Shown here: piece after piece, positions 6,180 through 41,197 of the stretch | How positions within the stretch are numbered: position 1 is the first letter of the stretch | How the letters are laid out: each line of letters begins with the position of its first letter | Assembly: GCA_965214565.1 (NCBI GenBank) | Contig: OZ243951.1 | Location: 2,740,888-2,804,887 of the forward strand | Reading direction: 5' to 3' | Origin: Candidatus Aldehydirespiratoraceae bacterium | GTDB lineage: Bacteria; Actinomycetota; Acidimicrobiia; Acidimicrobiales; Aldehydirespiratoraceae | DNA length: 64,000 nucleotides | Position numbers and translations under genes: made by a program | Notes under the pieces: generated by a model | What the model saw: only the letters and a program-made list of their open reading frames with translations | What the model was told of the DNA's origin: nothing | Database searches by the model: none

Positions 6180-6887
6180 ATGGCCACGACAAAGAAGAGT
6201 GCGGCTAGCGCGGCGAAAAAAACTACTGCGAAGAAGGCTGCGGCGGACTCGAAGCGAAAGCGCACTGCCGGCAAGGCTGTGACGGCCGAATCGGCGACGG
6301 ACGGTACTGCGGCAATGAAGAGCAGGACCAAGAAGTCCCCGGCGAAGAAACGAACCGTCAAGAAGGCCGCGGCCAAGCGCACGGCCAAGAATCCCCCGGT
6401 GAAAGCTGCGGCGATGAAGAGTACGAAGAAGAGGGCTGCGGCCAAGAAGACCTCGGCAGCCAAGCAAACGGCCAAGAAGCGGACCGCAAAGAAGACTCCT
6501 GCCAAGAAGTCACCTTTCGGCAAGAGGTTCAACGACGAAATGAAGAAACGACTGCTCGCAGAACGGGCCAAGTACCTCCACTCTGAAGAGATCTATCGGG
6601 CCGAGGCCGAGGCGCTGATCGAGGGTCGCGAACCGGGCGACGTCCAGTTCGACGAAGAGGGCGGCGAAGGCGACACCCTCGCTGTGGAACGCGAACGTGA
6701 CCTCGCATTGTCGGCACAGGCAAGAGTCGCGGTTGAACAGATCGATGCCGCGTTGGAACGAATCGCTGCTGGGACCTATGGCATTTGTGTCGTCTCCGGC
6801 CTGCGGATTCCACAGGAACGGCTCCGGGCGATTCCCTGGGCCGCCGAACGTGTCGAATACAAGGTCGGCAGCCTTGGGCGACGCTGA
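6180..6887 (+). CDS. Bipartite protein: Lys/Ala-rich histone-H1-like N-terminal half plus a DksA/TraR-like C-terminal domain
   Basis: The N-terminal ~115 aa are AKK/KKA repeats. The C-terminus (EGGEGDTLAVERERDLALS...IDAALERIAAGTYGIC...RLRAIPWA) matches the DksA/TraR coiled coil and finger region. This architecture is the one described for Streptomyces DdbA. Confidence 0.7.
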   Translation: MATTKKSAASAAKKTTAKKAAADSKRKRTAGKAVTAESATDGTAAMKSRTKKSPAKKRTVKKAAAKRTAKNPPVKAAAMKSTKKRAAAKKTSAAKQTAKKRTAKKTPAKKSPFGKRFNDEMKKRLLAERAKYLHSEEIYRAEAEALIEGREPGDVQFDEEGGEGDTLAVERERDLALSAQARVAVEQIDAALERIAAGTYGICVVSGLRIPQERLRAIPWAAERVEYKVGSLGRR

Positions 6888-6906
6888 GCAGAGCGGGTGA
6901 ACCGCT

Positions 6907-7836
6907 TTGTCCGATCAGCGCGTCATTTCAGAAGAGATCCCCGAAGCGTTGACCGATGAACGGCTTGACCGAGTCATTGCGTTGATGGCTGAGGTGAGTC
7001 GCTCCGTCGCTGCTCGGATGATTGCCGAGGGCTCGGTGACCGTCGATGGAGTGACTGCGAGATCAGGCTCGCTCCGCGTCTTTACGGGCAGCACGATCGA
7101 AGCGGTGCGCCCCGCTCCGTGCGATCCGAGGCCCGCTGCGGACCCGGAGGTGGAGTTCGCTGTCGTATATGAGGACCCTGACATTGTCGTTGTGGACAAA
7201 CCGGTTGGCCTCGTCGTTCATCCCGGCGCGGGACATGTTGAGAGGACTCTGGTCAACGGCCTTGTAGCCCGCTACCCGGAGACGGCGAATGTCGGTGAAG
7301 CGCACAGGCCGGGGATCGTACATCGACTCGATCGCACGACGTCTGGTCTGCTTGTTGTTGCCCGCAGTCCCGAGGCCTACCAGGGCCTCGTTGCTCAGAT
7401 GTCGGCTCACGAACCTGAACGGACCTACCAAGCGCTGGCCTGGGGCCTCCTGGAGAACGATCAAGGTACGATAGATGCTCCGATCGGGCGATCACCGAGA
7501 CATCCGACGCGGATGTCGGTGACCGACCGCGGGCGTAGGGCACTCACCCGCTACGAGGTCCTCGAACGTTTCATCGAACCACGGGAGACGTCGTTGCTGT
7601 CGTGTCGGCTCGAGACGGGACGGACCCACCAGATTCGGGTGCACCTGCGAGCCATTGGTCATCCCGTCGTCGGTGACCGGGCGTACGACGGAGGCAGACC
7701 GGGCATCGATCTGGACCGGCCGTTCCTGCACGCATGCGCACTTCGTTTTCGTCATCCGGTCACCAACGAACGTCTCGAACTGGAGTCGGAGCTTCCCGAT
7801 GATCTTGCCGCCGTCCTGGCGCTCTGCTCCCCATGA
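6907..7836 (+). CDS. rluD: RluA-family 23S rRNA pseudouridine synthase (RluD-like) with an N-terminal S4 domain
   Basis: HRLDRTTSGLLVVA catalytic motif and a GRTHQIRVH motif. TTG start. Confidence 0.85.
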   Translation: MSDQRVISEEIPEALTDERLDRVIALMAEVSRSVAARMIAEGSVTVDGVTARSGSLRVFTGSTIEAVRPAPCDPRPAADPEVEFAVVYEDPDIVVVDKPVGLVVHPGAGHVERTLVNGLVARYPETANVGEAHRPGIVHRLDRTTSGLLVVARSPEAYQGLVAQMSAHEPERTYQALAWGLLENDQGTIDAPIGRSPRHPTRMSVTDRGRRALTRYEVLERFIEPRETSLLSCRLETGRTHQIRVHLRAIGHPVVGDRAYDGGRPGIDLDRPFLHACALRFRHPVTNERLELESELPDDLAAVLALCSP

Positions 7837-7908
7837 GCAGATCCGAGGATTGCCTGAGCACACCCGAGGATTGAACGGTGAGCTGTTTGGGGCCAGTTCG
7901 TTGGGCCT

Positions 7909-8355
7909 CTAGAGCTCCTCAGGGACGGGCCATGGGGCTTGGCCCCGAGACATTGCCGCAATATCGGCCAGGGTGAACGAATCGAGGAAGTCACGCATGT
8001 GTGTCCCGGCTGCACCCCAGATGCTGAGCAGGACACACTGCCCCTCATGGTCGCAGGCTCCGTCGGTGTGAGGTTCTGAGAAGTCGCCCGCGGTGATCGG
8101 TCCGTCAACGGCTCGAACTATCTCCGACAGTCGAATCTCGCTCGGGTCCCGGGTCAGGACGTAGCCGCCGCCTACTCCCCGCTTCGAGCGAACGATCCCC
8201 GCCCCCTTCACCGCTAGCAGGATCTGTTCAAGGTAGGGCTGGGGGAGAGCAGTGCGTTCGGCGATCTCGCGTACCGACGTGGGCGCTTCCTCGGTGTGCA
8301 GTGCCAAGGAGAGCAGCGCGCGGGCGGCGTAGTCACCTCTGGTCGAGACTCTCAT
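7909..8355 (-). CDS. Rrf2 family transcriptional regulator
   Basis: MRVSTRGDYAARALLSLA...SVREIAERTALPQPYLEQIL...GGGYVLTR is a textbook Rrf2 winged helix-turn-helix (wHTH). The start is at the internal ATG (8355); the longer upstream ORF extension looks non-coding. Confidence 0.85.
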   Translation of the reverse strand: MRVSTRGDYAARALLSLALHTEEAPTSVREIAERTALPQPYLEQILLAVKGAGIVRSKRGVGGGYVLTRDPSEIRLSEIVRAVDGPITAGDFSEPHTDGACDHEGQCVLLSIWGAAGTHMRDFLDSFTLADIAAMSRGQAPWPVPEEL

Positions 8356-8446
8356 GGTCCAGAGCCTACGTGACTGTCGCCGGCTCGGCAGAGTTGTAGA
8401 GTCACTGCGGAGCGACGCGAGCAGAACTTCCGGAGGACTTGAGCGA

Positions 8447-9550
8447 ATGCACGACCCCGATCCGATGCTGCCCGCCTTCGGCGGAGACTGTATAACAGAC
8501 CTAGTGCCAGCACTCCTCGGAGTGACGGCACCACCACAGTCGCTGCTCGATGAAGCGGTGCTCGACAGTTTCGCAGTGGTGATGCTGGTCCTCGACGGCC
8601 TCGGCTGGAACCAGTTGCAGCAACGAGCGCATCTGGCACCGACTCTGATGTCGATGAAGCAGCGCAGCGCCACCACGGTGGCCCCGTCTACAACGGCAAC
8701 GGCGCTCACCTCGCTGGTGACTGGAACGCCTCCAGGTCGCCACGGGGTGGTCGGGTATCGGATCAAGGTCGACGGAGAAGTGCTGAATACCCTGCGGTGG
8801 AGCACACCGAGCGGCGATGCTCGCAAACGTATTGTGCCCGGCGAGTTCCAACCTGAACCGGCTTTCTGTGGTCAGCGGCCAGTGGTCGTACAGAATGCCG
8901 AGTTCCTTCACAGCGGGTTCACGATGGCACACCTCGCGGACGTGAGGCACCGCGGCTGGGAGACGATGCCAGCGATAGCGGTCCAGGTGCGTCAGGCAAT
9001 CGCCTCTGGGGAACCCTTCGTCTATGCTTACTACGACGGCATCGACAAGTCGGCCCACCTTCGGGGATTCGGCGAGTTCTACGACGCTGAACTGGTTGCC
9101 TGCGACAAGTTGGTGGCCGATCTGATGATGGCGCTGCCGCGCGGCACAGCCATTGTCGTGACCGCCGATCACGGACTGGTCGATTGTCAGGGTGCCGCCA
9201 CCGCGTTCGCCCCCGAGGTGAGCGCCCATGTGCGTTCCCAGAGCGGCGAGGCCCGCTTTCGTTGGCTGCACGCCGAGCGCGGCCGACAAGCCGATCTCTT
9301 CGCCGCGGCAGCAGCCGCACATTCTGACCGGGCCTGGGTGCATACCGCCGAGGAGATGATCGATGAAGGCTGGTTCGGCCCTGAAGTGACCGACGCGGCT
9401 CGATCCAGGCTCGGCGATGTGGCTGTTGTAGCCAAGGATCGTTGGTATTTCACCGATTCGGTCGACAACCCGAGGACCGAGTTGATCGGCCGTCATGGAT
9501 CGTTGACACCCGACGAGATGCTCATCCCCGTTCTAAGCTTTACCAGCTGA
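8447..9550 (+). CDS. Alkaline-phosphatase-superfamily protein (nucleotide pyrophosphatase/phosphodiesterase-like)
   Basis: LDGLGWNQL, TTATALTSLVTGTPPGRHG (nucleophile Thr region), DGIDKSAH and VVTADHG motifs. The start at ATG 8447 is my choice among in-frame options. Confidence 0.7.
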   Translation: MHDPDPMLPAFGGDCITDLVPALLGVTAPPQSLLDEAVLDSFAVVMLVLDGLGWNQLQQRAHLAPTLMSMKQRSATTVAPSTTATALTSLVTGTPPGRHGVVGYRIKVDGEVLNTLRWSTPSGDARKRIVPGEFQPEPAFCGQRPVVVQNAEFLHSGFTMAHLADVRHRGWETMPAIAVQVRQAIASGEPFVYAYYDGIDKSAHLRGFGEFYDAELVACDKLVADLMMALPRGTAIVVTADHGLVDCQGAATAFAPEVSAHVRSQSGEARFRWLHAERGRQADLFAAAAAAHSDRAWVHTAEEMIDEGWFGPEVTDAARSRLGDVAVVAKDRWYFTDSVDNPRTELIGRHGSLTPDEMLIPVLSFTS

Positions 9551-9553
9551 CCG

Positions 9554-10075
9554 TTGACTTGGGAGAACTCCTTGCCTGAACGACCGAACCACCCCGGCAG
9601 TCCCGACTCAGAGCCACAGTTGCTTGAGCCGCCCGAAGTGCTGGATCCCACGGATTCCAGCGAAGAGCTGAGCGAGACGATCGACCACCCCGCCAAGGTG
9701 ATGCGCATCGGAACCATGATGAAACAGTTGCTCGACGAGGTGCGGTCCACGGAACTCGACGAGCCCAGCCGCGACCGGTTGCGTGACATCTACGAGACGT
9801 CTATCGCCGAACTCGGTGGGGCGCTCTCTGATGATCTCCGTGAGGAACTGGGGCGGCTCGCTCTGCCCTTCGGCTCAGAGGAGATCCCCACAGGCGCTGA
9901 ACTTCAGATAGCCAAGGCACAACTCGTCGGTTGGCTCGAAGGGCTCGTCCAGGGAATCCAAGCGATGCTGTTCGCCCAGCAGATGGCTGCGCAGCAGCAG
10001 CTCCAGTCGATGCGGACCCAGATCGGTCCGGCCCAGAGCGAGGCGGGCGACGAGCGTCCGGGCACGTACCTCTGA
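9554..10075 (+). CDS. bpa: Bacterial proteasome activator Bpa/PafE (DUF2587)
   Basis: There are long blocks shared with M. tuberculosis Rv3780 as I remember it (PAKVMRIGTMMKQLLDEVR, LVGWLEGL, FAQQMAA). The C-terminus ends in GTYL, versus GQYL in Mtb. Confidence 0.85.
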   Translation: MTWENSLPERPNHPGSPDSEPQLLEPPEVLDPTDSSEELSETIDHPAKVMRIGTMMKQLLDEVRSTELDEPSRDRLRDIYETSIAELGGALSDDLREELGRLALPFGSEEIPTGAELQIAKAQLVGWLEGLVQGIQAMLFAQQMAAQQQLQSMRTQIGPAQSEAGDERPGTYL

Positions 10076-10189
10076 GTCAACTCATGCTAGCAGATATTGT
10101 CGGTTCGAAGGTGGACGCCACCCGTGGGCGACGGGTAGGTTCAGATGACAACCATGTGATTGTGGTTCGGTAGCGAAAAAGGAGTCCGG

Positions 10190-13100
10190 TTGGGCGATTC
10201 GTTCACGCATCTTCATGTCCACACCGAGTATTCGATGCTTGACGGTGCCTCGCGTGTAGACGATGCCATCAATGCTGCGGTCGCCGACGGTCAACCAGCT
10301 CTGGCGATCACCGACCACGGCAACATGTACGGCGTCCTGGAGTTCTACAAGGGCTGTCGCGACGCGGGTATCAAGCCGATTCTCGGCACCGAGATCTACC
10401 TGGCCCACGAGTCGCGGACCGAGCGACCGAACCGCACGGGCCGCGCCGACGACTCCGGTGGCAACACCGGGTCGGGCCAGAAGCTCTACTACCACGCGAT
10501 ACTGCTCGCGGAGAGCGACGTCGGCTACAAGAACCTGATCCAGATCTCCAGCGAGGCCTTCCTGTCGGGCTACCACTACAAGCCCCGCGCCGACTTCGAG
10601 CTCCTTGAGAAGTACCACGAAGGTCTGATCGCCACCTGCGGCTGCCTGGGAGGGCACGTCCTCCAGTCACTGCTGCAGGGGCAGGAGAAAGCGGCGTTGG
10701 AGCAGGCAGCACGATTCCAGGACATCTTCGGAAGGGACAACTACTTCATCGAGATCCAAGACCACGGGATGCCCGAGCAGCACAGGACCAACCCGCAACT
10801 TCTGGAGATCGCCCGCAAGATCAAGGCTCCGATCGTCGCGACCAACGACAGCCACTACACACACCCCCATGACGCCGAGGCGCATGACGCGCTGCTGTGT
10901 GTCCAGACCGGGTCGTTGTTGAGCGACACGGACCGCTTCAAGTTCCACGGCGACCAGCACTACATCAAGTCGGCCGCTGAGATGCGACGGCTGTTCAAAG
11001 AGGTCCCAGAGGCGTGCGACAACACGCTGTGGGTCGCGGAGCGGGCCGACGTCAACATTGAGTTCGGTCAGTCCAGGCTCCCGAGATTCCCGCTCCCTGA
11101 AGGCTTTGCATCAGACACCGACTATCTGCGCCACCTCACCTACGAGGGGGCGAAACGCCGTTGGGGTAGGGGCTTGAGCGCTGAAGCCGTCGAGCGGCTC
11201 GATTTCGAGCTCGGTGTTATCGACAGAATGGGCTTCTCCGCCTACTTCCTGATCACCTGGGATCTGATCCGCTTCGCACGCGACAGCGACATTCGGGTTG
11301 GTCCGGGCAGGGGTTCGGCTGCCGGTTGTGCGGTCGCCTACGCCTTGAGCATCACGGATCTGGACCCGATCAGGTACGACCTCCTGTTCGAGCGCTTCCT
11401 CAACCCGGCGCGCTTGTCTATGCCCGATATCGACATGGACTTCGAGACACGCCACCGTGACGCGGTGATCCGTTACGCTGCTGAGAAGTACGGACGGGAC
11501 AGCGTCGCTCAGATTGTCACATTCTCGCAGATCAAGGCACGTGCCGCGGTGCGCGACGCAGCCCGGGTCCTGGGCTACCCGTACGGTCTGGGAGACAAGA
11601 TCGCAAAATCCATGCCACCGCTGGTGATGGGTCGCGACACACCGCTGAAATACTGCTTCGAGGAGCATCCCGAATACATCGAGAGTTACCGCGCGTCCAC
11701 AGAGTTGCGCGAGATGGTCGAGGAGAGCCCCGATGCCGCTCGTGTTGTGGAGGTGGCCAAAGGACTGGAGGGACTGCGTCGCCAGGACAGCGTCCACGCT
11801 GCCGCGGTGGTGATCACCGACAAACCGCTGACCGAATATCTTCCGATTCAACGCAAGCCCGAAGGACGAAGAGGTCGAATCGAGGATGCTCCGATAGTCA
11901 CCCAGTACGAAATGAACGGTCTCGAGAGCCTCGGCCTGTTGAAACTGGACTTTCTTGGGCTTCGAAACCTCGATGTGATCGCCGACTGCCTCGCGCTCAT
12001 CAAGCAGACTCGGGGCGAGGCCATCGACATCGACGCGGTGGACCTCGAGGACCAGTGCACCTTTGAGCTGCTGCAGCGGGGCGACACGATCGGGGTCTTT
12101 CAGCTCGAGTCCGGTCCGATGCGTGCTCTGATCCGCTCTCTGGCACCCACTTCCTTTGATGACGTTGCTGCATTAGTGGCGCTCTACCGGCCGGGACCGA
12201 TGGCAGCGAACATGCACAACGACTACGCCGACCGCAAGAACGGCCGTCAACCGGTGAAGTTCATCCATCCCGACGCTGAGGAACTGCTCAGTGAGACTTA
12301 CGGGTTGATGATCTACCAGGAGAACGTCATGCGGGTGGCGCAGAAGTTCGCGGGCTATTCCCTCGCCGAAGCTGATTCGTTGCGAAAGGCTATGGGAAAG
12401 AAGATCCGCGAAGCGATGGCTCAGGAGCGGGAGAAGTTCGTCGCCGGGGTGGTCGACAACGGATATGAGCAATCTCTCGGCGAGGAACTGTTCGACATCA
12501 TCGATCGATTCGCTGACTACGCCTTCAACAAGAGCCACTCCTACGGTTACGGCTACATCGCCTATCAGATCGCCTACCTGAAGGCTAACTTCCCGGTTGA
12601 ATACCTCTCCGCACTGCTCACCAGCGTTAAGGCGAAGCTCGGATCAGCCGCGGTGTACCTCAACGAGTGCCGGCTCATGGGCATCGAAGTCGGAGTCCCC
12701 GACATCAACCGCTCAGAATCCGATTTCACTCCAGAACCAGATCTGAGTCCCGATGCCAGATCCCCGGGGAGAATCGTCTTCGGGCTCTCGGCAATCCGCA
12801 ATGTTGGAGTGGGTTTCGTTGCAAAAGTAGTTGAGGAACGCGAGGCCAACGGTCCGTTCGAGTCGTTCGTCGACTTCGTGGAGCGGATCAACATGGACGC
12901 TCTCAACAAGCGAACCACCGAGTCGCTGATCAAGGGGGGGGCCTTCGATTCGCTCGGCCACTCGCGCAAGGGGCTGCTCCAAGTCCACGAACGGATCACC
13001 GAGATGACGGTGGAACGTCGCAAGGAGCATGACATGGGCGTCATGTCGCTGTTCGGAGACCTCGACGAGGGTCCGACATTTGATGAGCGCCCAGAGATCC

Positions 13101-36631: not shown

Positions 36632-36642
36632 TCCCTTGTTGC

Positions 36643-36670
36643 GGCCCTCCACGGGCAGGGCCTGTTTCCT
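36643..36670 (+). terminator. Possible terminator hairpin after hisF
   Basis: GGCCCT-ccacgggc-AGGGCC followed by TGTTTCCT. The stem is short and the T-tract weak. Confidence 0.35.
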
Positions 36671-36727
36671 GGCACATCCGGACGAGCCCATAAGGCTAGG
36701 ATCCACAAGGGAGGATCGGGTGCGGAG

Positions 36728-38107
36728 ATGCTAGTCGGACTGAAGATCAAGAACTTCAAGAGCATCCGGGATGCACACGTACGCTTGGGGCCCTTCACAT
36801 GCTTCATCGGTCACAACGGGGTGGGGAAGAGCAATCTGTTCGATGCGATCCACTTTCTGAGTTCTCTGGCCGAGCACGACATCCCTGAGGCAGCCACGCT
36901 GGTCAGGAGTGCCAGTGACGGCAGCTACTCGCCTCTGGACTTGGTGTTCGGCCGGGACCCGACCCGCAAGATTGAACTGACGGCCGACATGATCGCCCCC
37001 CAACAAGTCGAAGACGACTTCGGTGAGGAGGCGACACCCAGCACGACGCTGTTGACCTACTCTTTAACGCTCGGTTATCAAGGTGAATCCGACCGCTTGG
37101 TTGTCGAGAATGAGAGCCTGACACACGCAAGGCTCGGGGAGTACAAGAAGTTCGTCGGCTTCGCGTCCTCCGCCGACTTCAGGGAGTCGGTTGCCGTCGG
37201 GTCGCGCCGGGGCGGGGCACTGATTTCGACGAATTCAGAGGATCGCCGGATCATGCTTCATGGTGATGGTGGCAGCAGGGGGAGGCCAACGCCCGTGGGC
37301 AAGTCACCGTTGACGGTGGTCGGAGGCACCAATACCTTCAACTATCCGACGGTGCTTGCGGCGAAACGAGAAATGTCCTCTTGGCGGACTCTCCACCTTG
37401 AGCCGAGTGTCATGAGGGCTCCCGACCCGCGCTCGGCACCTCGACACGTCTCGGCTTCAGGAGGACATATTGCAGCGACACTCAATGCGCTCATACAACA
37501 GCACCCCGACTCCAGACTTGAGATAGTCAACAATCTTCGTGAACTCAACTCGGGTATCGAAGAGATAGACGTCCACAGCGACGAAGTCAGGGACCAGTTG
37601 ACCTTGAGGGCGAGGGTTCCCGGAGTGGACAACTGGCTCTACGGACGGTCCCTGTCCGACGGCACGCTGAGATATGTTGCGCTCGCTTTGATGTTGGCAG
37701 ATGTTCAGGACAGGGCAGTCCTATGCATGGAGGAGCCGGAGAATGGAATCCACCCGTCACGTATTCCCAATCTTGTGGAGTTACTGCGTGACTACGCGGT
37801 GGATGTCGGTGAGCCAGTTGCTGATGACAATCCACTGAGACAAGTCCTGATCAACACGCACTCACCAGAAGTAGTACGTCAGGTCGAGTTGGACGAGATG
37901 ATCTTTGTTGAAGTTGCCAATTCCCCCCGGGACGGCCAGTACAGCGTTTTTCGGCCGATTGAAGACACTTGGCGCGTGCCTGCCCTTGACGGGACCGAGT
38001 CAGAGGTACTACCCAAAGCTAAGCAACGCGTGGCGGATTTCATCGGCGGTTCGCCGGTCAACACCAAGCTTGGTCAGTTGCAGTTCGATTTCGGGTCTGC
38101 TCGGTGA
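36728..38107 (+). CDS. ABC/SMC-like ATPase of the AAA_15/AAA_21 type (RecF/OLD-ATPase-like), 459 aa
   Basis: N-terminal IKNFKSIRD...[14 protein letters not shown] (Walker A), a long helical/insert region, then [15 protein letters not shown] (signature-like), [13 protein letters not shown] (Walker B/D-loop) and INTHSPEVV (H-loop). A GGGAGGA SD lies upstream. GC is visibly lower than in hisF. Confidence 0.85.
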
Positions 38108-38691
38108 GTCGGCAGATCACCTACACAGTCGTGGCAGACGGTGGGACCGACAGGCTCCTGGTGCCCATCATTGACTGGACCATTCATCGACTTGATCCGG
38201 AGGTCGACATTCTCGAGCCTGAGTTTGAGAAACGGGCCGGAAGCGTCGGTGAGCATTTCGAGAGTTCCACGCGCACCACCATGCTGGTCTTCGCTCATCG
38301 CGACGCCGAGGCTTCGAGCATCGATGACCGTCTGCGCGAATTCGACAGTGTGTCCGGTGTGGTTCCCGTGGTTCCGGTTCGGATGTCCGAGGCTTGGCTC
38401 CTGATCGATGGCGACGCGATCGCCCGAGCCGCCGATTCGCGTGCCGCGGTCGATTTGCCCAAGTTGAACACGCTCGAAAACGTTGTTGATCCGAAATCTG
38501 AGTTGGAAACGCTCCTGTTCGCGGCGGCGGGTTCTCCGACGGGGCGCCGCGGAAAGAAGTTCAAGAGTTCGTTGGCGAAGCGCCGTGTGAACCTGGCGTC
38601 ACTCATTACGGACTACAGCCCGCTCGAGAGTCTTGAAGCGTTCCGCCGATTTCAATCCTCTCTCGCCGACGCGTACCCCTACCGCCTGTAG
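38104..38691 (+). CDS. Small partner protein of the ATPase, Toprim-like/DUF4276-like (function inferred)
   Basis: The GTG start overlaps the ATPase stop (GTGA). 195 aa, with an N-terminal strand plus acidic motif YTVVADGGTDRLLV, then FAHRDAE, RMSEAWLLIDG and KSELETLLF. From memory, this pattern resembles DUF4276/Toprim-type partners of AAA_21 ATPases. Confidence 0.6.
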   Translation: MSRQITYTVVADGGTDRLLVPIIDWTIHRLDPEVDILEPEFEKRAGSVGEHFESSTRTTMLVFAHRDAEASSIDDRLREFDSVSGVVPVVPVRMSEAWLLIDGDAIARAADSRAAVDLPKLNTLENVVDPKSELETLLFAAAGSPTGRRGKKFKSSLAKRRVNLASLITDYSPLESLEAFRRFQSSLADAYPYRL

Positions 38692-38821
38692 TTCTCGTAT
38701 TCTGTGCGTTCGCGCGAGGTCGAGCCGTGCGGTACTACGGGAGTTGATCGGACGGACGCTCAAGGGTCGGGCCAGCGGTCCCGACAGCGCTCGGGCTGAT
38801 CCGAGCGTGTGCAGCAGCAGG

Positions 38822-39052
38822 ATGACCGAGATCCCGGCCGCTGAGACTTGTCGCCTGATCGTCGCCGCGGTGGACGCCGACCAGTTGCTACTAGCCGCTC
38901 ACGTTCACGCCGACTTTGAGCCCCTTGAGCGTGAGCGCAGCGACGCGGTGAACGCGGCACGCCGGGCGCTACGCGATGGAGGTCGTTCCAACGCGCTGAT
39001 GGTCTGGAGAATGAGCAGCGGGGACATGGACCTGTTGACCGCGCGGGGCTGA
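38822..39052 (+). CDS. Hypothetical small ORF (76 aa) or gene remnant
   Basis: High third-position GC in this frame, but no convincing SD, no recognisable family, and an ambiguous start (TTG 38744 / GTG 38807 / ATG 38822). Confidence 0.25.
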   Translation: MTEIPAAETCRLIVAAVDADQLLLAAHVHADFEPLERERSDAVNAARRALRDGGRSNALMVWRMSSGDMDLLTARG

Positions 39053-39104
39053 TCCGGGCGCGCGTATCACAGTGACTATCGCTGTAGCAGCCAAATGCAA
39101 CATT

Positions 39105-39164
39105 GGCCGGAGTTGTGTCGTGCAGGCCGGAGTTGTGTCGTGCAGGCCGGAGTTGTGTTGTGTG
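39105..39164. repeat. Tandem repeat, 20-bp unit GGCCGGAGTTGTGTCGTGCA x~3
   Basis: Copies at 39105-39124 and 39125-39144 are identical. The third copy (39145-~39164) diverges at its 3' end (…GTGTTGTGTG). It lies in a stretch with no convincing gene. Confidence 0.9.
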
Positions 39165-39535
39165 CGTCTGTGAGCAACGTCGGGCTTGGCCAAGGCAGCC
39201 CGAACCCGTTCTCTCCAGGGTTTGGAACGTCGGTGGACACAGCACGCCGAGGCACGAAACGCGAACGGCTGACCGGTCGCTGCAACCTCACCAACAGCGG
39301 TCCGGTGGTCGCTGCTCGGCGAGGTGCGTTCAGTGGTCGGGGACCTAGGCGCGACCGGCGGGATCGCAGCGATCACCGCTTTGGTGAACGCGTTACCGCT
39401 CGACGTTCGACACTGGACATTGGCTGGCTACAACGACATGCGCAACACAACCGCCGCCGATGTGCAACGATTGCCCGATCCCGCCATAACGGCCCAGACA
39501 GCCCTCCCTGAACAGCGTTGACGCAAACGACGGGT

Positions 39536-39913
39536 TCAGCTTTGTCTCAGCGACCCGACAGGTATCGATATTGTGCCTCTGGTCTTGTCGATTCTGAACG
39601 GACCATCGACGCGAGCCAGCGTGCAGGACACCAGCACGTCGTCTTGGTACCTGTCAAGGTTTAGCCAGCTGGTTGAGACCAGAGTGTCCCCGCCGGGTGT
39701 GTCCGCTGGGGGTTTGATCGTGAACGTCACGGTTAAGAACTGGGAGGGTGACCCGATCACCTTGAGGTCAGCCTGAGCTTCTAGCCCCGCTTCTGGGACT
39801 AATCCGCCGACAAGGACAGCGAAGCCGACCTCAACGTGACTATCGGGCACCGCGCCCGTAGTCACATCTTGGAGCCAGACTTTGTTGATGTCTTTGTTGG
39901 CGTTCCCCGACAT
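39536..39913 (-). CDS. Hypothetical protein (125 aa, predicted beta-rich), downstream partner of the HIRAN gene
   Basis: A strong GGGAGGG SD lies 5 nt before the ATG, 25 nt after the HIRAN gene's stop. Low GC like its neighbour. No family recognised. Confidence 0.65.
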   Translation of the reverse strand: MSGNANKDINKVWLQDVTTGAVPDSHVEVGFAVLVGGLVPEAGLEAQADLKVIGSPSQFLTVTFTIKPPADTPGGDTLVSTSWLNLDRYQDDVLVSCTLARVDGPFRIDKTRGTISIPVGSLRQS

Positions 39914-39938
39914 GGTGTCCCTCCCTCATATCCGCCGC

Positions 39939-40940
39939 TCAGGCGGGTGGTGGTGGTGGAGGTGGAGGTGGTGGCGGCGGCGGCAGAGCGGTTGTTGTCG
40001 GCGGCGGCGCCCCAGCGTTCAGTCTTTTGGCTTCACGGAATGCTTCCTTGGCGGCTTCGCATGTCTCGATCTTGAAACGTGTGTGCAGCAGCCTTCCGAC
40101 TGCTTGATGGTGTCCAGCGTCATTTCGCTTGACTGTTCCGCAGTAAGAACTGCACTTCCATGTTGATGCTTCGTGAGCGTTGCTTGGCAGCTTGGCTCGG
40201 ATGCTCCCGGCGAAATCGTCCTCTTCGTCTTCTTCGCCCCCGAACCGCTCATAACAGTTACGTGTCAAGGTCAATTTCACTTCCAAATTGTCTACGTTTG
40301 GTCCCCAGAGTTTTTCGAGCGGGTCGACGACACCTACGACTGCGCTGCCCTTCGCTATGACGACTTCTATCGTGTTCGGGGAGTCAGCGACGTTTGGTGA
40401 GTGCCTCAGCCTGGCGGCGAAAGCCTTGGTGACCTCCCAATCGTCCTCTCGTTCGCGTCCTCGCTTCAGCATCGGCTGAAGAACTCTCTCGTCTAGATCG
40501 ACTCTGATGGCTCGACTGCCGAGTCCCCCTGCGTCCATGGCGGTCTTGTCTAGTTTGACTCCGAAGCAGCCATGCCTGCCCACGACGGCCCCCTTGACAG
40601 GTACCGGTTCGACTACATCGTCTGCGAACATGGCGGCGGTCGCCCTGTCAAGGTGACCTACCAGAAGGGCGGTCGTGTGGTCATATCTGTCGAGTGCGCT
40701 CGCACAAACAGCAATAGCGTTGGGGTCGTACTTGTTGTGGGTGTCTCTTACTAACCAGAACTGAACTCCCAGCTTCATCCAGTCCCCCGAAGAGTGGATG
40801 TGGCGTTTGCCATCTTGGAGCAGCGCGCCAATTTGCTGGTCGTGGTAGCTCTCGCCGACGATATCGAACCTACAGTCGTCGTTGTCTGTCACGTTCCAGT
40901 AGGCGACGTTGAGTTTCGAGCGTCGTCTCAACAGTCCCAT
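39939..40940 (-). CDS. HIRAN-domain protein with an uncharacterised C-terminal region and a poly-proline tail
   Basis: The N-terminus FDIVGESYHDQQIGALL...FWLVRDTHNKYDPNAIAVC...VGHLDRATAAMFADDV fits the HIRAN pattern (VGxxY...N-x-Y/F-D-x-N-A-I/V...G-Y/H-L/V). An AAGGAG SD lies 8 nt before the ATG. The C-terminus ends in 13 consecutive Pro. GC was about 45% in the one 60-nt line I hand-counted (40261-40320). Confidence 0.75.
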   Translation of the reverse strand: MGLLRRRSKLNVAYWNVTDNDDCRFDIVGESYHDQQIGALLQDGKRHIHSSGDWMKLGVQFWLVRDTHNKYDPNAIAVCASALDRYDHTTALLVGHLDRATAAMFADDVVEPVPVKGAVVGRHGCFGVKLDKTAMDAGGLGSRAIRVDLDERVLQPMLKRGREREDDWEVTKAFAARLRHSPNVADSPNTIEVVIAKGSAVVGVVDPLEKLWGPNVDNLEVKLTLTRNCYERFGGEEDEEDDFAGSIRAKLPSNAHEASTWKCSSYCGTVKRNDAGHHQAVGRLLHTRFKIETCEAAKEAFREAKRLNAGAPPPTTTALPPPPPPPPPPPPPA

Positions 40941-41197
40941 CTCGTCGCTCCTTTAGGATGCGGGCTTCAGTTGGCGCACGCTACTACGAATGGTGTCTGC
41001 CTGGGTGACCTGACCCCCTTTTATGGTCCGGTTGTTTTGAGAGTGTTTTCTGGTTGTTTGCCCATTGGTCCGCGTATTGGGTTGGTGTGAGCACACCGAT
41101 ACCGAACTGTTGAGATTGGAACTGATCATCTAGCCGTCAGGGGCATCCCACCACGGCGCCGGGCTCAATCTTGTGGGGTGGGCGCTAGCGTGGCTCT

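Follow-up and report, generated by a model that had tools for sequence, protein, structure and literature searches.

What is the two-gene unit that lies directly after hisF in an Acidimicrobiia genome, and what may it do there? The question was addressed in a stretch of 64,000 nucleotides (nt) of contig OZ243951.1 from a Candidatus Aldehydirespiratoraceae bacterium, which is called the window throughout. Two genes of its forward strand form the pair under study: gene A (36728..38107, 459 amino acids) and gene B (38104..38691, 195 amino acids). The original prediction, made from the letters of the window, had described them as an ATPase with a small Toprim-like partner in the manner of the PARIS, OLD and AbiL systems, and had supposed a distinct, uncharacterised variant. 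Our analysis shows that the pair is of an already catalogued kind, HEC-01, and is a new member rather than a new system. We consider it probable that the pair is a stand-alone member of this candidate defence family, in which an ATP-binding cassette (ABC) ATPase is co-translated with a small Toprim-like putative nuclease and for which an ATPase-gated defence is proposed.

The assignment was done by a profile scan with the hidden Markov model library of PADLOC. Protein A matches the HEC-01A profile (PDLC04184) with E=2.2e-80, residues 1-399 lying on profile positions 1-413 of 464, and protein B matches the HEC-01B profile (PDLC04210) with E=3.1e-15, residues 43-190 lying on profile positions 56-208 of 217. 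The two matches fall on adjacent genes of the same strand, so that both profiles and the gene arrangement tested for HEC-01 are found together. The HEC-01B profile also matches 29 of 29 diverse relatives of B, down to 31% identity, and with these matches the idea of an uncharacterised variant had to be given up. The mad3, AriA, AbiLi, Old and GajA profiles of PADLOC all match A much more weakly than HEC-01A does. Full-length homologues number hundreds to thousands for both A and B, which places the feature far beyond chance.

Both open reading frames (ORFs), their overlap and all eight motifs quoted in the original prediction were recovered at their positions. Upstream of the pair lies the his operon, and downstream are a segment with a HIRAN-domain protein, a groES-like gene and an amidase gene. 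The start of A is 96 nt from the stop of hisF. The intervening DNA is the non-coding leader of the cassette (36634..36727, + strand), and homology with empty-site relatives stops just past the hisF stop. The leader contains a Shine-Dalgarno-like GGGAGGA read 5' of A (36709-36715, +) and a terminator-like hairpin (36643-36662) from a hairpin scan in which the count of such sites is not above the shuffled expectation. The junction of the genes reads cgGTGAgt, the GTG start of B being placed inside the TGA stop of A (38104..38107, +), and this 4-bp overlap points to translational coupling. We take the overlapping start to be real because residues M1, R3 and Q4 of B are conserved in 38 homologues, and the same conservation rules out another start codon for B. 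The lower guanine-plus-cytosine content of the pair, which had been put at about 50-57% against about 73% (16-23 points), is real and was overstated: the measured values are 57.7% (A), 60.2% (B), 64.9% (hisF) and 62.9% (the whole window), which makes the dip one of 5-7 points.

The co-translation that had been proposed for A and B is borne out by comparison of related loci. In 80 of 80 of them, from many phyla, the direct upstream neighbour of B is an A-type ATPase gene of the same strand, and the junction overlaps in 61 of the 80 (47 with a 4-bp NTGA, 14 with other overlaps). By this gene order A and B are obligately paired and usually translationally coupled.

Gene A is identified as an ABC ATPase of the SMC/RecF type and of the HEC-01A family by PADLOC, Pfam, conserved motifs, fold and the ratio of nonsynonymous to synonymous substitution rates (dN/dS). 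The expected AAA_21/AAA_15 affiliation is confirmed by Pfam (AAA_21 6e-29, AAA_15 1e-20). Its motifs, all on the + strand, are Walker A (GHNGVGKSN at residue 28; 36809-36835), the signature LSDGTLR (residue 309; 37652-37672), the Walker B/D-loop (residue 331; 37718-37756) and the H-loop (NTHSPE at residue 376; 37853-37870). Across 31 homologues the Walker A residues G28-S35 including K34, the signature residues S308-G312, the Walker B residues E335/E336 and H378 are invariant. The AlphaFold model of A is of moderate quality, with a predicted score in the local distance difference test (pLDDT) of 70.6 and a predicted template-modelling score (pTM) of 0.75, and resembles an SMC/Rad50-type ABC head. 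The folds nearest to it, at E of about 1e-13 and template-modelling (TM) scores of 0.4-0.48, are those of PtuA (from Septu and from retron I-A), of SMC heads and of GajA; no AriA chain stands within its top 50 fold matches, and a sequence search of the PDB with A returned only P-loop-level matches.

A side observation on A concerns residues 157-204 (window 37196-37339). This stretch is rich in Gly, Arg and Pro and is near-invariant across phyla (G158, R160, H178-G179-D180, G182-S183-R184, R186-P187 and T196-V197 among others), yet the AlphaFold model gives it a pLDDT below 50. It is a candidate for a partner- or ligand-binding loop.

Gene B (38104..38691, +) encodes a Toprim-like putative metal-dependent nuclease of the HEC-01B family. 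Against Pfam DUF4276 (PF14103) it scores 15.6 bits (E=0.019) and does not reach the gathering threshold of 30.2 bits, while 20 of the 29 diverse relatives match DUF4276 and no other Pfam family (E<=0.1; best 1.7e-5). B is therefore a remote relative of DUF4276 and not a member as Pfam defines it, and it is as such a relative, with a Toprim-like fold, that the earlier description of a DUF4276-like Toprim partner holds. No match to B was obtained with the AriB, DUF4435, AbiLii, RloB, Old and GajA profiles of PADLOC and Pfam or with the RecR models of Pfam and NCBIfam; PHROG has no family for it, and a sequence search of the PDB gave nothing meaningful.

In the AF2 model of B, which is confident (pLDDT 90.8, pTM 0.88), a helical bundle comes after a beta-alpha-beta-alpha-beta-alpha-beta core. 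In the model, beta1 (7-11) is followed by D12 at the position of the canonical Toprim Glu, and beta3 (61-65) by D67-A-E69 at the DxD position, so the core and the acidic residues of the Toprim superfamily are both present in it. In the PDB a single full-length match has a high probability, and it is also the best one, the C-terminal Toprim region of the Burkholderia OLD protein BpOLD (6nk8_A; prob 0.97, E=1e-2, TM 0.43); the best full-length viral structural match is a RloB-like protein (prob 0.90, TM 0.47). A Toprim-type fold for B is accordingly well supported by the model but not proven, since these structural scores are modest.

The conserved motifs of B lie on the + strand as A-D12-G-G-T-D16 (38137-38151, within VVADGGTD at residue 9), H65-R-D67-A-E69 (38296-38310), M94-S-E96-A-W-L-L-I-D102-G (38383-38412) and D129-P-K131 (38488-38496), the last being followed by SELETLLF at residue 132. 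Residues G13, D16, H65, R66, D67, R93, M94, E96, W98, P130 and K131 are invariant across the B family, and D12, E69 and D102 are near-invariant down to 31% identity, one member having Glu at position 12. The Asp at the first acidic Toprim position, which had been noted in place of the canonical Glu, is thus a hallmark of the whole family rather than something special to this gene. D12/D16, D67/E69 and K131 may correspond to the metal and lysine sites of OLD.

HEC-01 (Hma-embedded candidate 01) was described as an ABC ATPase with a TOPRIM partner found embedded in Hma systems; its B protein is reported to share the OLD metal-binding site as aligned to the BpOLD structure, and the candidates of that study were chosen for being common outside hma loci too (Payne et al., bioRxiv 10.1101/2024.01.29.577857). 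The window copy agrees with this description in its two genes, an ABC ATPase with a small TOPRIM-like partner, and in the BpOLD Toprim region as best fold match of B. It differs in standing alone after hisF and not being embedded in an Hma system, and it belongs to a tight sub-branch (at least 50% identity across phyla) with a weaker HEC-01B match (3e-15 against values down to 2e-29). In environmental genomes HEC-01 is reported as one of the more abundant types of candidate defence, and in E. coli a representative from a cold seep gave protection from one or more of the phages T7, T5 and T4.

The HEC-01 family is related to Mad3 and Mad4 of the MADS system, and DUF4276, of which Mad4 is a member, is assigned to the Toprim superfamily. 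In MADS of P. aeruginosa the deletion of mad3 or mad4 lowers defence, and mad5 could be deleted only together with mad2 or mad3; in the scoring of MADS, Mad3 and Mad4 count as accessory components, MAD6, MAD7 and MAD8 as mandatory ones. The pair of the window resembles Mad3/Mad4 as an AAA_15/21 ABC ATPase encoded together with a protein of the DUF4276 Toprim superfamily. Unlike them, A reaches 122.8 bits with the MAD3 equivalog NF047739, far below its cutoff of 420, B stays under the DUF4276 gathering threshold, and none of mad1, mad2 and mad5-8 lies beside the pair, the mandatory MAD6, MAD7 and MAD8 included.

For PARIS, OLD, Gabija and AbiL the comparison separates architecture from membership. 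The architecture that had been read as PARIS/OLD/AbiL-style stands, and membership does not, because B lacks an AriB, AbiLii or OLD/GajA profile match. The AriA6:AriB3 complex of PARIS depends on ATP to detect Ocr and then sets AriB free, and AriB cleaves tRNA-Lys; the PARIS authors placed MADS3-4 and AbiL among OLD-like systems of ABC ATPase and Toprim protein. The pair shares with PARIS a two-gene operon with separate genes for an ABC ATPase, the sensor in PARIS, and a Toprim protein, the nuclease effector there. It is unlike PARIS in that B has no AriB/DUF4435 match and only about 195 residues, compared with about 35 kDa for AriB, and the AriA profiles match A at 3e-29 and 2e-22, over the generic AAA_21/AAA_15 regions and far more weakly than HEC-01A. 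With OLD, Gabija and AbiL the pair has in common an ABC ATPase with a Toprim-type nuclease, and the best folds of B are the OLD Toprim region and a RloB-like protein. In OLD and GajA, however, ATPase and Toprim part make up one fused protein, whereas the pair encodes them separately; a helicase of the GajB type is absent beside the pair; B has no AbiLii/RloB profile match, its likeness to the RloB-like viral protein being at fold level only; and the AbiLi, Old and GajA profiles match A weakly. By family the pair is HEC-01, and by analogy it would work like the OLD-like systems of ABC ATPase plus Toprim.

Whether the pair is a fixed part of the genome was examined through its position. A search with B showed that several metagenome-assembled genomes (MAGs) of Acidimicrobiia have it in the same place, in the order hisF-A-B-groES-like, and a search anchored on the groES-like gene gave 80 Acidimicrobiia loci, in about 60 of which hisF lies near the groES-like gene with neither A nor B between them. 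In the closest relatives (L011, L013 and L015) the gap between hisF and the groES-like gene is only 55 bp, and when occupied and empty sites are compared, homology stops right after the hisF stop and restarts about 45 bp before the groES-like gene. Core-gene identities define two close groups, one formed by the window, L002 and L010 and the other by L011, L012 and L013. The pair is present in L012 and absent from L011 and L013, though their core proteins are 98-99% identical to those of L012. The A protein of L012 is 93% identical to that of L002 where core proteins are only 90% identical, while window and L002 share 86% in A and 95% in core proteins. The tree of A conflicts with the core tree, occupied and empty genomes being interleaved, and at synonymous sites A has diverged 2-3 times as far as hisF when the same two genomes are compared. 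Because of the empty sites in closest relatives, the interleaved presence and absence, the incongruent tree and the raised synonymous divergence, the pair is an accessory cassette that has been gained, lost and exchanged between lineages. Conservation beside hisF throughout the clade had been named in the original prediction as a finding that would speak against it, and such conservation was not found; the loci without the pair, closest relatives included, rule out the hypothesis of a core gene.

Accessory status goes together with sequence constraint. With dN/dS values of 0.05-0.09 (A) and 0.07-0.22 (B), compared with 0.04-0.13 for hisF, both genes are under purifying selection, and in the window both are intact with every conserved motif kept. 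A survey of about 90 loci for decayed copies showed B frameshifted beside an intact A in L010 (8319-8904) and L121 (6001-6590), B truncated after residue 42 beside an intact A in L008 (8001-8126), and an internal deletion leaving a stub of B beside a full-length open frame of A in L014 (8840-8960). In L127 (5543-6509) both genes are rearranged, and no broken A beside an intact B was seen in the survey. From gene length about 30% of first inactivating hits would be expected in B; the observed 4 of 4 have a probability of about 0.008 by simple arithmetic. This decay of B first would fit B as a costly, potentially self-harmful partner that A restrains.

The pair is also widely distributed. A profile search with B gave 1,698 clusters (50% identity, E<=1e-3) among 1.84 billion representative proteins, and at least 593 species-level genomes carry a relative of B, in Actinomycetota, Acidobacteriota, Pseudomonadota, Myxococcota, Planctomycetota, Cyanobacteria, Bacteroidota, Nitrospirota and other phyla. 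The sub-branch of the window is unusually conserved across phyla, with identities of 65-70% for A and 55-65% for B.

On the model borrowed from PARIS (AriA/AriB) and MADS, the following mechanism may be proposed. A would dimerise or oligomerise around ATP and hold B in an inactive complex, as in PARIS and by analogy with Mad3/Mad4. A cue from a phage or mobile element, sensed by A in an ATP-dependent way, would free or activate B, and B would then cut nucleic acid, DNA or tRNA, in a metal-dependent reaction by which the invader or the infected cell is stopped. The putative active site of B would be the acidic cluster D12/D16/D67/E69/E96/D102, probably with K131. In such a scheme B would be the partner that can harm its own cell, and A would restrain or regulate it. 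Some copies of the pair adjoin type I or Mrr-type restriction genes or toxin-antitoxin pairs, which was counted in favour of defence. A sample of nine loci outside the clade of the window gave the details: in L098 the pair lies 21 bp upstream of hsdM of a type I restriction-modification system, with PIN/Phd pairs on both sides; in L102 it adjoins a Mrr-helicase-methylase gene; in another of the nine, genes for Fic, PIN/Phd and DUF1156 lie no more than 8 kb from the pair; and in another, from a more distant Acidimicrobiia genome, an integrase, a PLD nuclease and DUF4145 are close by.

Several observations weigh against a defence role or against parts of its basis. A HEC-01 representative tested in E. 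coli MG1655 with the BASEL collection and classic phages gave no protection (Payne et al.), and no biochemistry has been published for any HEC-01 member. In five of the nine sampled neighbourhoods the pair stands alone beside metabolic or housekeeping genes. The hisF|groES-like junction is variable and is not a defence island in other genomes, because its other inserts are ordinary genes: in the more distant Acidimicrobiia L028, L044, L053, L089 and L068 it holds 4-7.5 kb of unrelated genes, and the inserts include genes for a BTAD regulator, a SNF2 helicase with DUF3670, a subtilase and an oxidoreductase of the indolepyruvate type. The structural support for Toprim in B is modest, with no Foldseek match at E<=1e-3 and TM values of 0.43-0.47, and in sequence B stays under the DUF4276 threshold of Pfam. 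Among the decayed copies, L010 and L121 are single frameshifts in MAG assemblies and may be sequencing errors, and L008 is a short-read contig and may be a chimera. No copy was present in 50,697 phage records, and a plasmid collection of 72,556 records gave only one remote match.

Two hypotheses were set aside on these data. A defence island at the hisF|groES-like spot is unsupported by the nature of the other inserts, and carriage by phages or plasmids was rejected on the missing phage match in these collections, the single remote plasmid match and the lack of a PHROG family for B. Guilt by association with a defence island does not apply here, and the case is one of family membership and population behaviour, not of neighbourhood.

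Among the other explanations, a selfish addiction cassette of the toxin-antitoxin type is unlikely; B would be its nuclease toxin and A an ATP-dependent neutraliser, with no dedicated anti-phage role, and the cassette would be kept because the loss of A does damage. A compact, overlapping two-gene cassette that occurs singly among housekeeping genes in many phyla without a recombinase would suit it, as would decay that strikes B first and never A alone, and so would the negative phage test of Payne et al. The module is nearly absent, however, from plasmid and phage collections, the usual home of addiction modules, its relatives Mad3/Mad4, HEC-04 and PARIS act in defence, and one HEC-01 did protect; moreover, toxin-antitoxin and abortive-infection roles can coexist. 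It is quite unlikely, too, that the pair is an orphan part split off from some bigger system of modification-dependent restriction (MADS/Hma or type I restriction-modification), a part that would need distant partners or be inert alone. HEC-01 was first found inside Hma systems, A has sub-threshold matches to the MAD3 model of NCBIfam and to mad3 of PADLOC (1e-29), Mad3 and Mad4 are scored as accessory in MADS, and the copies in L098 and L102 do lie beside hsdM and a Mrr-helicase-methylase gene. Yet neither the window nor the relatives in its clade have a methylase, helicase or other mad or hma gene beside the pair, most sampled copies are alone and still under strong purifying selection with motifs intact, and the candidates of Payne et al. 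were picked as common outside hma loci as well.

A housekeeping DNA-repair duo, analogous to RecF with RecR or to SbcCD, is hardly credible and is largely refuted by the pattern of presence and absence. The domain make-up is formally similar, and the N-terminus of A has weak matches to RecF, RecN, SMC and Rad50 models. The RecF score of A is nonetheless 41 bits against a cutoff of 172, B has no RecR match in Pfam or NCBIfam, the distribution is patchy and cuts across phyla, and some genomes lack the pair although their core proteins share 98-99% identity with those of a carrier.

The reading of the pair as a stand-alone HEC-01 member can be sharpened, tentatively and with some doubt, into a more specific one. 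The sub-branch of the window could be an autonomous PARIS-like, ATPase-gated Toprim toxin that forms a distinct OLD-like class with a D..D/HRDAE/DPK active site and no methylation partner. It would travel as a cassette of about 2 kb across phyla without a recombinase, possibly in sponge microbiomes, and the loss of B first would be the footprint of toxicity restrained by A.

The two published phage tests of HEC-01 conflict, and together with the high conservation across phyla, the recombinase-free behaviour of the cassette and the asymmetry of decay this is where the residual interest of the locus lies. The locus and its relatives offer a natural data set, comprising an intact and selected stand-alone pair, relatives with empty sites and four cases in which B was lost and A kept. 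Invariant residues are listed for mutagenesis: K34, E335/E336 and H378 of A, and D12, D16, D67, E69, E96, D102 and K131 of B.

Downstream of the pair, the window carries an extra accessory segment of 2.5 kb (38692..41156), outside the module and of low guanine-plus-cytosine content (about 57.6%). It contains an ORF of 125 amino acids without a family match (39536-39913, - strand) and a gene for a HIRAN-domain protein of 333 amino acids with a C-terminal poly-proline tail (39939-40940, -; Pfam HIRAN 7.6e-07), and neither protein has a PADLOC, NCBIfam or PHROG match. A non-coding tandem repeat (39105-39164) consists of three head-to-tail copies of the 20-nt unit GGCCGGAGTTGTGTCGTGCA with 100%, 100% and 85% identity; the Rfam scan of the window gave no match, this repeat included. 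The segment was found in none of about 85 related loci, and in pair-carrying relatives B is followed by the groES-like gene within about 100 bp. The segment is thus an insertion in its own right, and its absence from all pair-carrying relatives rules out a system of three genes that would take in the HIRAN protein.

Alignment to the 3' end of hisF revealed, at the right edge of the inserted block, a degenerate copy of that end with an internal deletion (GAGCACACCG...GAACTGATC; 41083..41128, +), and the window has exactly two occurrences of the pattern GAGCACACCGNNNCCGA where 0.11 are expected. This suggests that recombination in which the 3' end of hisF took part brought the insertions in. A search for insertion signatures gave no tRNA genes, no Rfam matches, no convincing target-site duplication and no excess of terminator-like sites over expectation.

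Some minor observations concern the relatives. In L012 (the same as L001) the region 5' of A (6653-6905) contains only a remnant of hisF, in which residues ~97-150 run straight into the final 16 codons; a his operon is absent there within 6.6 kb, and the groES-like and downstream genes are in place. In L097, a more distant Acidimicrobiia locus in which the pair is present, the stretch 7368-12641 past the groES-like gene carries genes for a DUF4145 protein, a PLDc_2 nuclease, a MZB-domain protein and a rve integrase, together with a cut-down amidase gene; this insert looks like a mobile or defence-like one that broke the amidase gene. Among the relatives in the host clade and the closest cross-phylum homologues, names typical of sponge symbionts recur (Poriferisocius, Spongiisocius, APA_bin, RHO1_bin and SB06xx_bin, at L015, L024, L030, L033, L054, L065, L079, L107, L108, L114 and L122). 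Taken as record names, these hint that the cassette spreads across phyla inside sponge microbiomes.

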